A stretch of DNA of 23,800 bases from a virus. Lineage: Duplodnaviria > Heunggongvirae > Uroviricota > Caudoviricetes. The stretch is taken from the IMG/VR virus record IMGVR_UViG_2663763471_000001. One strand, 5' to 3'. This document shows positions 1-4,064 of the stretch, piece after piece. A model generated the notes under the pieces. It was not told where the DNA came from and made no database searches. It saw nothing but the letters and a program-made list of their open reading frames with translations. Numbering within the stretch: the first letter of the stretch is position 1; every line of letters begins with the position of its first letter. The position numbers and the translations under genes were made by a program.

Positions 1-1
1 G

Positions 2-103
2 GGGCTGAATGCGCTGACGCTGACGGATATTACCAAAAATGCAACGTATGGCGTTGAGATAGAAAGTCTGGTGCTGGAGATAAATGCACCGGCATCATCA
101 TAA
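2..103 (+). CDS. 3' end of an upstream ORF (partial, unknown function)
   Basis: Open frame from the window edge to TAA at 101-103 (…GLNALTLTDITKNATYGVEIESLVLEINAPASS*). Sits where lambdoid phages carry Q or a moron upstream of the lysis genes. No recognisable motif. Confidence 0.3.
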   Translation, partial: GLNALTLTDITKNATYGVEIESLVLEINAPASS

Positions 104-187
104 AAAGTGAGCCAGTCAAATGGAAGGTATCGTTAAACTCACCGGTAGTGTCAGTGGGTCGTCTGAGATGCCTGCATGAGTTATCAG

Positions 188-218
188 AGCCATCAGTACT
201 TAACTGGTGGCTTTTTTT
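188..218 (+). terminator. Rho-independent terminator, tR'-like, upstream of the lysis genes
   Basis: 8-bp stem agccatca/tggtggct (one G-U wobble), 9-nt loop, then a run of seven T. Lies just before the holin start, the position of lambda tR' that Q antitermination reads through. Confidence 0.55.
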
Positions 219-253
219 ATTGTTGTCAGCTTCCGGATAACGGGAGACGGGGT

Positions 254-469
254 ATGTACCAGATGGAAAAAATCACAACAGGTGTGTCATACACCACGTC
301 AGCGGTGGGAACGGGCTACTGGTTCCTGCAGTTGCTGGACAGGGTTTCCCCGTCTCAGTGGGCGGCAATAGGCGTGCTGGGGAGTCTGCTGTTTGGGCTG
401 CTGACATATCTGACTAACCTGTATTTCAAAATCAGAGAGGACCGTCGTAAGGCGGCACGGGGAGAGTAA
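254..469 (+). CDS. S: Class II holin/antiholin, phage 21 S (pinholin) type, dual-start motif
   Basis: Translation [71 protein letters not shown] resembles phage 21 S as recalled from memory. In-frame ATGs at 254 and 263 give 71- and 68-aa products, the S21-71/S21-68 arrangement. Two TM segments and a charged C-terminus. The ORF-track start at 176 is rejected because it would span the terminator hairpin. Confidence 0.85.
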
Positions 470-473
470 TTCA

Positions 474-818
474 ATGACTCAAAACTATGAACTGATTGTG
501 AAAGGGATCCGCAATTTTGAGAATAAAGTTACGGTAACTTTAGCGTTACGGGACAAAAAACGCTTTGACGGTGAAATTTTTGACCTGGACATCTCGCTGG
601 ACCGTGTTGAAGGTGCCGCGCTGGAGTTTTATGAGGCAGCAGCCAGAAGGAGCATCAGACAGGTCTTCCTGGATGTTGCTGCCGGGTTATGTGAAGGGGA
701 TGAGCAGTCGCCGGAAAAGCGCCCCGTAATTTTAGAGGCGCAGGATGTGTTGATAACCTACAGAGGAAAACTACCGGGAATAATTACGGGTTCTCTGAAG
801 AGTCCGCCGAAATGGTAA
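474..818 (+). CDS. Hypothetical protein (114 aa) inserted between holin and endolysin
   Basis: ATG at 474 with SD ggagag 7 nt upstream. Charged, soluble-looking protein with no TM segment. Local GC is lower than in the flanking phage genes. Not recognised. Confidence 0.5.
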   Translation: MTQNYELIVKGIRNFENKVTVTLALRDKKRFDGEIFDLDISLDRVEGAALEFYEAAARRSIRQVFLDVAAGLCEGDEQSPEKRPVILEAQDVLITYRGKLPGIITGSLKSPPKW

Positions 819-1056
819 TTTTACCAGCATATTTTTCATCCAGTAATACAGCAAGCCGCCTGAAAGAGTCTTGTTGTTCCTGAGACCATTTGGGATTGCA
901 TGATTCAAACTGGATTGATGCCAGCGTTGATTGCATCTGTTCCCTTGGAATTGAGAATGCCAGATATGAGAAGGCGACGGTAAGGGTATTCACGTCTTCC
1001 CGAAGCCTGGAAATGCTGTCGAGCAACTCCTGTAGAGAAATGGTGTTATTGTCCAT
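784..1056 (-). CDS. Hypothetical protein (90 aa), convergent with and overlapping the 3' end of 474-818
   Basis: ATG at 1056 on the - strand with SD GAGGA 7 nt upstream. Hydrophilic, likely helical. Its 3' end overlaps the upstream + gene by 35 nt. Function unknown; coding status unverified. Confidence 0.35.
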   Translation of the reverse strand: MDNNTISLQELLDSISRLREDVNTLTVAFSYLAFSIPREQMQSTLASIQFESCNPKWSQEQQDSFRRLAVLLDEKYAGKITISADSSENP

Positions 1057-1161
1057 AAATAATCCTCATGATTGTATTGACCTGTTAGCAGCCTGAGGCA
1101 ACAGGCTGGAACTGATAAACATATCCAGGGCTCAGAAACCGATAAATCCTGATAAATATCC

Positions 1162-1695
1162 ATGAACGCAAAAATCAGATACGGCCTGTCGGCTGCCGTT
1201 CTGGCGCTGATTGCCGCTGGTGCGCCTGCGCCTGACATTCTCGACCAGTTTCTGGATGAAAAGGAAGGTAACCACACCACGGCATACCGTGATGGCGCGG
1301 GTATCTGGACCATCTGCCGCGGTGCCATCCTGGTGGATGGCAAACCTGTCGTTCCGGGCATGAAGTTGTCGAAGGAAAAATGCGACCGGGTTAACGCCAT
1401 TGAGCGTGATAAGGCGCTGGCATGGGTGGAGAAAAACATCAAAGTGCCATTGACCGAACCCCAGAAAGCGGGGATCGCGTCATTCTGTCCGTACAACATT
1501 GGTCCCGGTAAGTGTTTCCCGTCGACGTTTTACAGACGAATTAATGCAGGTGATCGCAGGGGAGCATGCGAAGCGATTCGCTGGTGGATTAAGGACGGTG
1601 GCAGAGACTGCCGTATTCGCTCAAATAACTGTTACGGTCAGGTATTCCGTCGTGACCAGGAGAGCGCGCTGGCGTGCTGGGGAATCGACAGATAA
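1162..1695 (+). CDS. R: SAR endolysin (lysozyme, T4-lysozyme/GH24 type, phage 21 R-like)
   Basis: N-terminal weakly hydrophobic Gly/Ala-rich SAR segment (YGLSAAVLALIAAGAPAP) followed by the E-X8-D-X5-T catalytic motif (EGNHTTAYRDGAGIWT). Paired with a pinholin as in phage 21. Confidence 0.9.
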   Translation: MNAKIRYGLSAAVLALIAAGAPAPDILDQFLDEKEGNHTTAYRDGAGIWTICRGAILVDGKPVVPGMKLSKEKCDRVNAIERDKALAWVEKNIKVPLTEPQKAGIASFCPYNIGPGKCFPSTFYRRINAGDRRGACEAIRWWIKDGGRDCRIRSNNCYGQVFRRDQESALACWGIDR

Positions 1696-1786
1696 GCAGA
1701 ATATTTTGCTGAAAAATGAGGTTGGCCAACGCGGGCGGATAACACGAAGTCCTGTGAACTGGCAAAACCTAAGTGAATAAAAGTAA

Positions 1787-1825
1787 AAACCCCGTTTGTT
1801 GGCAGCAAGCGGGGTTTTGTTTTTA
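1787..1825 (+). terminator. Rho-independent terminator downstream of the endolysin
   Basis: aaaccccgtttg / caagcggggttt stem (one U-G wobble), 7-nt loop, followed by tgttttta. Confidence 0.55.
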
Positions 1826-1987
1826 TGGCAGTAAGCTATGGGAGGCTGCCTTGATTGATTTTAGCAAACTGATTAGGGAGTTGCGACTCATGATTAGTCA
1901 ATTACCAAACTGGAAATTTTTGCTGGTCTGGAGCATCCCTTTTTTATGGGTAGTATCCCAGTTAATTGTGGCAATTAAGGGGTAGCT

Positions 1988-2119
1988 ATGTCAGACAAAC
2001 TCATAACGCCGGCAAAGGTCCTGTGTGTGATTGTCGGTATTTCATTTTCACTAATGCTGGTTGCTCTTTTTCTGTCCCTCGCCTGGGTGATGTTGTCTTC
2101 GTCGGGGCTGCTGGGGTGA
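1988..2119 (+). CDS. Small hydrophobic peptide (43 aa, single predicted TM)
   Basis: ATG at 1988 with SD aagggg 6 nt upstream. MSDKLITPAKVLCVIVGISFSLMLVALFLSLAWVMLSSSGLLG. Too short for the ORF track. AT-rich context between endolysin and Rz. Confidence 0.4.
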   Translation: MSDKLITPAKVLCVIVGISFSLMLVALFLSLAWVMLSSSGLLG

Positions 2120-2337
2120 CAGTGACTGATGACATCAGCAGAGCGCTGGCTTTTGCTATTAAGTGGGTGGCTGTTGGTATTGCTGTGTCTCCGATGCTGT
2201 ATGGGCTGGCAAAACTGGTCATTGCGCTGAAATCGTGAACTTTAAAAAGATGAGTGCTGAACTTATTCGGGCAATGGCATTTGCCATTCGTATTGTGGCC
2301 ATTGCTGTTCTGGTCTGGGCAATCCGTTGGTGGTGAT

Positions 2338-2832
2338 ATGAACCGTGTTCTGTGTGTGGTGATTATTGTCATGCTGGTAGCCTGTGGTGTGCTTAGTCTG
2401 GGGCTGAATCATTACCGCGATAACGCCATCACCTACAAAGCGCAGCGCGATAAAAAAGTCAGTGAGCTGAAACTGGCGAATGCCACTATTACTGACATGC
2501 AGCAGCGCCAGCGAGATGTCGCTGCGCTTGATGCCAGATACACGAAGGAATTAGCCGATGCGAGAGCTGAAAATGAAACTCTGCGCGCTGATGTTGCCGC
2601 TGGTCGTAAGCGCCTGCGGGTCAACGCCACCTGCCCCGGTACCGTGCGTGAAGCCACCGGCACCTCCAGCGTGGATAATGCAACCGGCCCCCGACTGGCA
2701 GACACCGCTGAACGGGATTATTTCATCCTCAGAGAACGGTTGATGACAATGCAGAAGCAGCTGGAAGGGGCGCAGGAATATATCCGCACTCAGTGCACTA
2801 AGCTGGCTTTTTATTATCCGGAGGATACATGA
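2338..2832 (+). CDS. Rz: i-spanin Rz
   Basis: [41 protein letters not shown]… has an N-terminal TM anchor and the [15 protein letters not shown] motif, then a coiled-coil periplasmic domain, closely resembling lambda Rz as recalled. The ORF-track start at 2254 is an upstream extension. Confidence 0.9.
2558..2743 (+). CDS. Rz1: o-spanin Rz1, embedded in the +1 frame of Rz
   Basis: Signal peptide with lipobox LVVSAC, proline-rich mature part ([32 protein letters not shown]), about 60 aa, entirely inside Rz in another frame. Alternative start ATG at 2573. Confidence 0.85.
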
Positions 2833-3044
2833 AGAAATTACGGGTAACCGTAGAACCTTTTCAGGGAACAATTCCGTTCCGTATTTTGCAGCGTGGTCGT
2901 GTTCTTGTTGAAGGTTCGTTCAGTGGTAAATGTACGCAATTACACTCCCGGACCTTTCAGGTGAATGCCACGAATGAAGAGCTAACCGTGGAGTGTACGA
3001 TGAATGCCGCTAAATGCCGCATGGTATTACAGCCAGTGTGTTGA
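2829..3044 (+). CDS. Hypothetical protein (71 aa) downstream of Rz
   Basis: ATG overlaps the Rz stop (ATGA) and has SD ggagga upstream. Position matches small genes of unknown function found after the spanins in DLP12-like prophages. Confidence 0.45.
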
Positions 3045-3242
3045 GCGACCTTATTATCCATGCGCGGTATTGTCGCCGTATTCCTGCATTAACAGAGACC
3101 GCAGCCCGACAGGGAGACTCCTCTGCGCGAGTGTGCGGGGATAATCAAAAACGATACACACCGGGGTTTACCGCGTTAACGGAGCGCGGCGTTGTCCCCT
3201 CATAGTCGCCTGTCCGGTGCGATGGTGGAAGAAACCGAACGT

Positions 3243-3443
3243 TCATTTCTCGTTATTTGTCATGCTGGCCGGGCGCAGATGCGTTGCATCTGTTGCCAGC
3301 CTTCTCCTGCAGGCTTCAATAACCCACGCTGAAAAGTTACCGGACCCTTTATGCTCAAGGGCGATGTTGATCTGTTCAATTATGTGATTGGGGAAACGGA
3401 TATTGCGGGTTGTGGTTCTGCGGGTCCGGTTTTTCGATGACAT
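3243..3443 (-). CDS. Small basic protein, possibly YlcI/DUF3950-like (ribbon-helix-helix-like)
   Basis: Start moved to the internal ATG at 3443, which has SD AAAGGA 7 nt upstream. MSSKNRTRRTTTRNIRFPNHIIEQINIALEHKGSGNFSAWVIEACRRRL… resembles, from memory, the DLP12 ylcI product that sits just before the terminase small subunit. Identity unverified. Confidence 0.5.
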   Translation of the reverse strand: MSSKNRTRRTTTRNIRFPNHIIEQINIALEHKGSGNFSAWVIEACRRRLATDATHLRPASMTNNEK

Positions 3444-3484
3444 ATTTATTTCCTTTACTGATTGCCATATGACGGGGATTTTAC

Positions 3485-3850
3485 ATGGCTGAGCTTCGTA
3501 CACTCCAGAGCAGAATCAAAACACTGAATACCCGACGGGTGAATATTCTGAAGGGGGAGCAGCGTCGTGTCAGTGGCAGTGCACGTGTTTCCCTCAAGCG
3601 TCATATCTGGCTGAGGGACGCCGGGCAGTGCTGTATCTGTGGTCGTGTGGTTGACCTCTGTGACAGTGAACTCGATCACCGAATTGCACTTCAGTTCGGT
3701 GGTGGTAATGAGGAGACGAATCTTTGGACGCTCTGTGCCGAATGCCATCGACAAAAGTCTGCTCGTGAAGCGGCGAGTGGTATGCCGGACCCGACGCTGC
3801 CGGAGGTGTCCGGAGGTAGTGGCAGAGAGGACGACATCATCGGACTGTAA
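3485..3850 (+). CDS. HNH endonuclease, packaging-associated (HK97 gp74-like)
   Basis: HNH motif with zinc-binding Cys pairs (CCICG…DHRIALQFGG…N…CAECH). Located immediately upstream of the cos-like region and terminase small subunit, as in HK97-like phages. Confidence 0.85.
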   Translation: MAELRTLQSRIKTLNTRRVNILKGEQRRVSGSARVSLKRHIWLRDAGQCCICGRVVDLCDSELDHRIALQFGGGNEETNLWTLCAECHRQKSAREAASGMPDPTLPEVSGGSGREDDIIGL

Positions 3851-3942
3851 CCCAACCCGGGGGGGGTATCATCCGGCGTAAAAAACGATCGCTTTGGACA
3901 CCGCGCCCCCTCTCACGCAGAGAAAAAATTCCCGTTTCAGGG

Positions 3943-4064
3943 CAGTTAACATGTTAACTGGCTGCCCGGGCATTTTTGCGGTTTTTATCTTTATTATTCA
4001 GTTTGTTGTGCGGAAAAAATGTTAACAGGCTTTTTCAGCAAATGTTAACCAGGCAGCAGTTAAC
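3943..4064. repeat. Cluster of GTTAAC-containing palindromes and repeats in the HNH-terS intergenic region (putative cos / terminase-binding sites)
   Basis: Perfect 18-bp palindrome cagttaacatgttaactg at 3943-3960, plus further aatgttaac copies at 4021-4026, 4044-4049 and 4059-4064. A G8 run lies at 3859-3866. Non-coding, directly upstream of terS. Confidence 0.5.

Follow-up and report, generated by a model that had tools for sequence, protein, structure and literature searches.

What fills the space between the holin and endolysin genes of the viral record IMGVR_UViG_2663763471_000001 (IMG/VR; Caudoviricetes), and is it a single insertion? The stretch of this record analyzed here, referred to as the window, is 23,800 nucleotides long, and the space in question (positions 474–1161) separates an S21-type pinholin gene (S) from the gene for a signal-arrest-release (SAR) endolysin (R). 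An initial annotation, made from the sequence letters, described it as one insertion of low guanine–cytosine (GC) content carrying two genes that resemble nothing recognizable. By its distribution and alignments, the interval appears rather to consist of two unrelated elements, namely ydfR, which is common in such cassettes, and a separate, moron-like gene on the opposite strand, which we call m90. The genes of the interval and its flanks are as follows.

254–469, + strand: S21-type class II (pin)holin gene, 71 amino acids (aa) (Pfam PF04971, Phage_holin_2_1, 9e-33; PHROG holin families).

474–818, + strand: ydfR, 114 aa, DUF1327/YdfR family (Pfam PF07041), starting 4 nt past the holin stop codon.

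784–1056, − strand: m90, 90 aa, family phrog_2411, defined by PHROG match, homologues, and the ratio of nonsynonymous to synonymous substitution rates (dN/dS).

784–818, both strands: convergent overlap of ydfR and m90, 35 bp, coding for YdfR residues 104–114 on one strand and m90 residues 80–90 on the other.

1162–1695, + strand: SAR endolysin gene R, 177 aa (Pfam PF00959, 9e-24).

The two open reading frames (ORFs), 474–818 and 784–1056, lie where they were initially placed, with the 35-bp convergent overlap, and the other descriptive claims also stood. The 688 bp between S and R have a GC content of 45.6%, the window as a whole 55.9%; a value this low is reached in just 0.1% of 688-bp windows. 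Each ORF is preceded by its own Shine–Dalgarno sequence, GGAGAG (8 nt before the ATG) for ydfR and GAGGA for m90. The proposed solubility of the 114-residue protein agrees with its maximum Kyte–Doolittle(19) hydropathy of 0.69 (0.75 for m90), versus 1.70 for the holin and 1.74 for the endolysin signal-anchor. By this measure, neither YdfR nor m90 has a membrane-spanning stretch, and neither has the transmembrane segment, signal peptide, or lipobox that would mark a holin, antiholin, or spanin. The endolysin itself has an Ala/Gly-rich hydrophobic N-terminal stretch (residues 9–27) and an E-x8-D-x5-T motif from residue 35. The layout taken as the reference, a pinholin followed directly by a SAR endolysin, is seen in VT2-Sakai, with 4 nt between S and R. 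An Rfam scan of positions 1–3600 found no RNA family. The initial observation is confirmed, and its interpretation holds in part.

Bases 470–1165 are 100% identical to Escherichia phage vB_EcoS-783R2 (ON470626.1, a partial genome, with an offset of 44 bases) and to prophage DNA in many Escherichia coli strains, notably of sequence type 131 (ST131). GenBank and RefSeq already annotate four genes in this DNA: holin, “YdfR family protein,” “hypothetical protein” (minus strand), and lysozyme R. What seemed to be an unknown insertion in a lysis cassette is how such cassettes are usually arranged and annotated in E. coli prophages, K-12 Qin and those of the ST131 lineage among them.

The claim that neither protein resembles anything fails for the 114-residue ORF. 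Its product matches Pfam DUF1327 (PF07041) at 145.2 bits, with a cutoff of 25 (E = 7.3e-43; profile positions 1–91 of 93), and phrog_406 (4e-68), and identical DNA in RefSeq carries the label “YdfR family protein” at the same site. A DUF1327/YdfR-type protein already common at this site is the very finding that the initial annotation had named as speaking against its interpretation. Alignment of length variants, together with an AlphaFold2 (AF2) model, divides YdfR into two parts.

474–704, + strand: conserved DUF1327 core of YdfR, residues ~1–77, predicted to fold as β-β-β-α; its K-12 counterpart (residues 1–72) reportedly binds RNase E.

705–818, + strand: variable C-terminal segment of YdfR, residues ~78–114 (predicted local distance difference test score, pLDDT, below 50 for residues 72–114).

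In the AF2 model, the strands comprise residues 5–14, 18–27, and 34–43, and the helix comprises residues 50–73. Past residue ~78, the family splits into forms of 103, 114, 116, 176, 183, and 211 aa. The model (pLDDT 63) gave no significant fold match, and YdfR had no match at E ≤ 1 in a scan with PADLOC-DB.

The gene order S-ydfR-R recurs in K-12 Qin, in O55:H7, in Shiga toxin (Stx) phages of the Stx1/H-19B type, in ST131, and in many other phages. When positions 200–1750 (holin to endolysin) were used as the query, some part was matched in 4408 of 5426 complete E. coli genomes, and at least 80% of the query was matched in 1727. Among deposited phage genomes, an S21-type holin occurs in 436 and YdfR in 101, the latter including H-19B, BP-4795, YYZ-2008, and many Stx1a and Stx2c phages, whereas m90 occurs in 3. 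Judged by this distribution, S21-type cassettes regularly contain ydfR, whether or not the minus-strand gene is there too. The idea of one two-gene insertion does not survive these counts and the K-12 Qin arrangement: ydfR is common without m90, and m90 corresponds to a separate indel of ~277 bp.

The extent of this indel emerges from alignment with cassettes in which ydfR runs straight into R. Compared with vB_EcoS-611R1, the window is near-identical up to ~813 and again from ~1092, with ~277 bp missing between these points. Synteny with related prophages had been proposed initially as a check on the S–R insertion; by that check, the 688 bp are not one present/absent unit, and only the ~277 bp are missing in 611R1-type cassettes. 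Three features define the segment and its right-hand border.

814–1091, no strand: present/absent segment, ~277 bp, GC 43% (alignment with vB_EcoS-611R1, Chlobot, and O55:H7 CB9615).

1092–1161, + strand: endolysin leader, near-unchanged in cassettes with and without m90.

1089–1108, no strand: palindrome CAGCCTG-N6-CAGGCTG, upstream of the m90 gene, with the indel boundary (~1091) and the insertion sequence (IS) site of ST131 (1084–1086) at or next to it.

The GC content of 815–1091 is 43.0%, compared with 55.9% for the window, which places it within the lowest 0.8% of 277-bp windows. The left boundary falls inside the last codons of ydfR, and cassettes without m90 also have the DNA up to ~813. 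For its last ~9 codons, m90 thus makes use of sequence that is part of ydfR in all variants. Such a borrowed tail is in keeping with the lack of conservation and the predicted disorder of this end of the protein in the m90 family. The 70-bp leader, with the GATAAAT direct repeat (1141–1147 and 1151–1157), lies beyond the right boundary and is intact. The repeat reported initially in the spacer is thus present, but it belongs to the upstream region of R, which is kept without m90, and not to the cargo. In other cassettes, the same slot is filled differently, in some by an in-frame C-terminal extension of YdfR (183 aa) and in another by a 211-aa YdfR together with an unrelated 86-aa minus-strand ORF, phrog_2572. 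This 86-aa ORF (PhiR5_1) was considered as a relative of m90, and hhalign detected no relation.

In ST131 and its relatives, a 1253-bp IS3-family element, ISEc52, is inserted at 1084–1086 (locus L001, 6888–8139; L-numbers are our labels for loci) with a 3-bp GTT duplication, 28 bp upstream of the m90 start. The element splits holin, ydfR, and m90 from the endolysin and would detach m90 from anything upstream of its −10-like box, described below.

Is the minus-strand ORF a gene at all? That it is a chance open frame in a spacer might be argued from its position antisense to a highly transcribed operon and from its lack of a Pfam or NCBIfam family: scans of m90 and ten diverse family members against Pfam, NCBIfam, and PADLOC gave nothing above noise. 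The substitution pattern effectively refutes this idea. Across seven copies (dS up to ~1.1), dN/dS ranges from 0.11 to 0.47, with a median of about 0.27; third positions have an excess of changes, the length stays at exactly 90 codons, and the other five frames contain stops in most copies. Homologues of 24–99% identity exist, and those at 24–40% share a conserved core motif across several genera. Both the Prokaryotic Genome Annotation Pipeline (PGAP) and PHROGs call the ORF, the phrog_2411 match having E = 1.1e-58 over residues 1–90 of a 90-position profile. A chance frame is accordingly a reading to which we give next to no credence. By dN/dS and homologue comparison, m90 is a real gene under purifying selection, and by its profile match it is a member of phrog_2411, a small Enterobacterales family that is a PHROG without annotation. 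The initial view of moron-like cargo in lower-GC DNA between pinholin and SAR endolysin is borne out to this extent: by its dN/dS, the indel, its GC content, and a downstream hairpin (see below), the minus-strand ORF is a genuine, conserved, moron-like gene.

The m90 protein is acidic (pI 4.5). Its AF2 model has four helices and a mean pLDDT of 69, with residues 79–90 disordered, and Foldseek comparison of the model with PDB and BFVD gave no match at E ≤ 0.001. A PDB sequence search with the family profile had a best E of 1.2, and no PADLOC-DB defense model matched m90 at E ≤ 1. An exhaustive HMMER pass over 1.84 billion representatives recovered only 20 proteins. Literature searches found nothing on ybl58, phrog_2411, related protein accessions, or the phage name. 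The “ybl58” proteins, which at 44% identity looked like distant relatives of m90, are frameshifted copies and were rejected.

The setting of m90 bears on whether it and ydfR work together. Of 5426 complete E. coli genomes, 1053 contain m90 DNA (at least 80% coverage), but only 3 deposited phage genomes do. Among 82 related loci (80 taken from IMG/VR, 2 from GTDB genomes), 77 share one layout, with the m90 homologue overlapping ydfR and separated from R by 106 bp; the holin is found at the standard spacing in 72 of these, and the other 5 are cut before it. In phiSTEC1575-Stx2k, the ydfR–m90 pair is kept although R has been replaced by two other holins and an M15 peptidase. At this locus (L007, 1158–3176), the S21 holin, ydfR, and m90 are followed by an unrelated lysis set, and the recombination joint lies at the R start codon.

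More distant family members (24–60% identity) are also set backwards in lambdoid late operons. The Atlantibacter homologue lies between tail genes M and L, others adjoin tail gene M or lie near terminase, and the Citrobacter homologue lies between a 238-aa ORF and a lambda-S-type holin, CHAP endolysin, and Rz. Each of the distant late-operon homologues overlaps a convergent ORF (five among those examined). The Citrobacter, Atlantibacter, and lambda-like-phage homologues match the phrog_2411 profile, and our searches add to this family chromosomal genes of Serratia, Sodalis, Chania, Gibbsiella, and Acerihabitans. In Serratia-like genomes, the gene lies between dinI and bssS (many Serratia, Chania, and Gibbsiella entries). 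Another relative is found in the Sodalis ligni chromosome, and E. coli chromosomal relatives lie beside an AIDA-type autotransporter and an AraC regulator, and next to iha in an island remnant. The following family genes lie outside late operons.

L103, 4001–4279: m90-family gene.

L095, 4001–4294: m90-family gene.

L107, 2769–3047: m90-family gene.

L009, 1446–1718: m90-family gene (E. coli island remnant).

The fixed spacing in 77 of 82 loci and the retention of the pair in phiSTEC1575-Stx2k despite replaced downstream lysis genes could mean that ydfR and m90 form one functional module, either a protein with its antagonist or an antisense-coupled pair, with the overlap as the point of the arrangement. 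The tails of the convergent ORFs in Citrobacter and Atlantibacter resemble that of YdfR, and the overlap with a convergent ORF in five distant homologues would also suit such a module. However, ydfR is far commoner without m90, as the phage records (101 versus 3), K-12, and the 611R1-type cassettes indicate, and relatives of m90 in Serratia-like genomes, Sodalis, and E. coli islands have neither ydfR nor another gene overlapping them. The partner ORFs are, moreover, otherwise unrelated, and the similarity of their tails is statistically weak. We regard a single module as unlikely. Since m90 relatives occupy non-phage chromosomal sites that lack ydfR and lysis genes, the function of m90 is probably not tied to lysis or to YdfR.

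The tails themselves are described here in full. The window YdfR ends in ...ITGSLKSPPKW, and the ORFs convergent with m90 homologues in Citrobacter and Atlantibacter end in ...ITGSLRVPMKL and ...FGDLKKPPSY.

783–818, + strand, window: YdfR tail.

L094, 2739–3455, − strand: ORF with a similar tail.

L098, 4261–4476, − strand: ORF with a similar tail.

Apart from these tails, BLASTP finds no similarity among the ORFs convergent with m90 homologues. The hhalign probability for the tails is 3–8%, and a hidden Markov model of the YdfR tail scored E = 0.4–3 among 2231 ORFs, with two near the top, which is not significant. Possibly, m90 carries along the DNA immediately beyond its stop codon, which would give the neighboring gene a new C-terminus. 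A bolder version holds that m90, a hairpin downstream of it (see below), and an opposite-strand ...ITGSLKxPP tail are a small mobile unit that inserts backwards into enterobacterial phage late operons and gives the abutted gene a new C-terminus and stop, and that the protein founds an uncharacterized Enterobacterales-wide family, a core gene next to dinI in Serratia-like genomes, with a regulatory role expressed in the lysogen, such as RNA turnover with YdfR or superinfection. We consider this version decidedly doubtful.

The signals around m90 suggest how it might be expressed.

1063–1076, − strand: Shine–Dalgarno sequence GAGGA (1067–1063) and −10-like hexamer TACAAT (1076–1071), upstream of the m90 start.

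715–741, − strand: putative terminator hairpin for m90, GCGCCUC, 9-nt loop, GGGGCGC, UUUU (folding energy; kept in diverged contexts).

The GAGGA lies 6 nt before the ATG. In diverged copies of m90, the −10-like hexamer reads TACAAT, GACAAT, or TATAAT, the last of these in the most diverged E. coli copy. The hairpin begins 43 nt past the m90 stop, inside ydfR codons ~82–90, and the same stem, GCGCCUC...GRGGCGC, with other loops and U-runs, follows m90 homologues in the E. coli island remnant L009 (−16.1 kcal/mol) and in Citrobacter L094 (−17.9 kcal/mol), where the protein overlapping the homologue differs from YdfR. Terminator-like hairpins also follow two more distant homologues. On the + strand, the window hairpin has no T-run, so late transcription should pass through it. 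These elements are candidates for an m90 promoter and terminator, whose function we infer.

No LexA box was found upstream of m90 or of the Serratia-like homologue beside dinI; only dinI itself has one. Palindromes lie 35–70 nt upstream of m90-family starts in the window (1089–1108), in L094 (~2425–2445), and in L096 (~3930–3952), and none is a LexA box. Those of Citrobacter and the lambda-like phage have a common loop, GTGGGA, with compensating stem changes; the window palindrome is different. Such palindromes could be an operator or an RNA element.

The convergent orientation raises the idea that the m90 transcription unit is mainly an antisense or interference device that silences the lysis genes in the lysogen, the protein being secondary. 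The last ~104 nt of ydfR (715–818) would be covered by the complementary m90 transcript. Because the terminator-like hairpin limits the transcript, it is unlikely to extend to the holin gene, and m90 lies downstream of S and thus cannot block transcription entering S. Purifying selection on the protein, which is kept at 24–40% identity in other genera and contexts, also argues against the idea, and we judge it very improbable.

For YdfR, the only functional data that we found in the literature concern the K-12 protein (PMC13232886, 2026). In that study, K-12 YdfR residues 1–72 were recovered from a two-hybrid screen with RNase G as bait and gave a stronger signal with RNase E, including its catalytic N-terminal half, and Strep-tagged full-length YdfR co-purified RNase E 1–598 together with DNase-resistant nucleic acid, that is, RNA. 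Residues 1–72 of the window YdfR are 82% identical to the K-12 protein, and from this we infer that it may bind the RNase E N-terminal domain as well.

The slot between pinholin and SAR endolysin invites another explanation, in which YdfR is a lysis-timing or lysis-regulating factor. The gene is apparently translationally coupled to its neighbors, starting 4 nt after S in the window, with a stop that overlaps the rrrQ start in K-12, and a genetic screen cited in PMC13232886 ties ydfR to cell-envelope integrity. Nevertheless, YdfR lacks both a membrane segment and a signal peptide, many functional S21-type cassettes do without it (holin in 436 and YdfR in 101 phage records; in VT2-Sakai, R follows S directly), and all experimental evidence found relates to RNase E and RNA (PMC13232886). 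A role in lysis timing or regulation is therefore improbable.

On balance, we think it fairly probable that the interval is a composite of ydfR, a late gene for a cytoplasmic protein concerned with RNase E or RNA, and m90, an autonomous moron expressed in the lysogen. As a late gene of S21-type cassettes that starts 4 nt after the holin stop, ydfR would share the Q-dependent late transcript with the lysis genes and be expressed with them. By homology to K-12, its product would most likely be cytoplasmic and bind the catalytic half of RNase E, and possibly RNA, and it would not be a membrane lysis effector. m90 would be a self-contained moron of ~0.3–0.45 kb set backwards in the late operon. 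Given its own ribosome-binding site, −10-like element, and hairpin, it is most likely transcribed alone in the lysogen and silenced by head-on late transcription; its transcript would end within ydfR and would be overridden after induction. The product would be a small, acidic, four-helix cytoplasmic protein that probably binds a host or phage macromolecule. The expression timing of both genes, and any activity of m90, should be read as deductions of this kind.

Several points weigh against this composite picture. The −35 element of m90 is poor (TTGCCT, 19-nt spacing), and a consensus scan found no sigma-70 promoter for the gene. The window hairpin is modest (−12.3 kcal/mol, z = −1.9, four U), and a stricter terminator scanner skipped it because its T-run is only 4. 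Being part of a coding sequence, it may owe some of its conservation to constraint on YdfR, and it is also present in ydfR variants without m90. Because both structural models are mediocre (pLDDT 69 for m90 and 63 for YdfR) and gave no significant fold match, partner binding by m90 is a default assumption. For YdfR, RNase E binding is reported for the K-12 protein alone, whose C-terminus differs, and over-expression of K-12 YdfR altered few transcripts (PMC13232886).

Named systems resemble the locus in part. YdfR of K-12 Qin (b1555) is of the same family and occupies the same slot, between the class II holin gene essQ and the SAR lysozyme gene rrrQ (order essQ-ydfR-rrrQ-rzpQ). It differs in having 103 aa, an unrelated C-terminus from residue ~74, a stop codon that overlaps the rrrQ start, and no accompanying minus-strand gene. 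Compared with the S–R pair of phage 21 and VT2-Sakai, the window has a holin of the same PF04971 family, with 98.6% identity to VT2-Sakai S, and a 177-aa SAR endolysin; in VT2-Sakai, however, R starts 4 nt after S, whereas the window has 688 bp with ydfR and m90 at this point and a further 642 bp between R and Rz.

Morons of lambdoid phages are extra transcription units in late operons and were defined from comparisons of HK97, HK022, and lambda. Like them, m90 is present or absent among homologous neighbors, deviates in GC content, and has its own translation signals and a terminator-like hairpin. Unlike them, it runs against the late operon, overlaps the 3′ end of its neighbor, and has a promoter that is not demonstrable from sequence. 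The bor, lom, and Stx morons have a known function, unlike the m90 protein family.

Public records already annotate both genes. The place of ydfR is the textbook one known from K-12, and m90 is most likely a further, uncharacterized moron. The finding is real and largely ordinary, and its value is as a pointer to two small proteins, one with a plausible RNase E connection. With YdfR probably made alongside the lysis proteins and its K-12 relative tied to RNase E, the cassette suits tests of a late phage protein that touches host RNA decay. The m90 protein belongs to a widespread family of small proteins across Enterobacterales that has no annotation, and it is found in about a fifth of complete E. 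coli genomes and as a conserved chromosomal gene in Serratia-like bacteria. The behavior of m90 is that of portable cargo, which makes it a sensible choice when prophage-encoded lysogen functions are screened.

Other features of the cassette were noted in passing. Between the preceding gene and the holin gene, 40 bp before the holin start, there is a strong terminator-like hairpin (186–214; 12-bp stem and T-run), which late transcription presumably passes under Q antitermination. Between the endolysin and Rz, a second low-GC (46%) insertion (1696–2337) contains a strong terminator-like hairpin (1786–1818) and three tiny hydrophobic ORFs (1988–2119, 2083–2238, and 2250–2336) matching PHROGs 4906, 3246, 1115, and 4493 of unknown function. 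In other cassettes, R overlaps Rz directly, and Stx phages carry the ant antirepressor in this slot. Finally, a 61-aa ORF (2558–2743, + strand) in the +1 frame of Rz (2338–2832) has a lipobox, LVVSAC, and a proline-rich body; it corresponds to the expected Rz1 o-spanin and is unannotated in ON470626.1.

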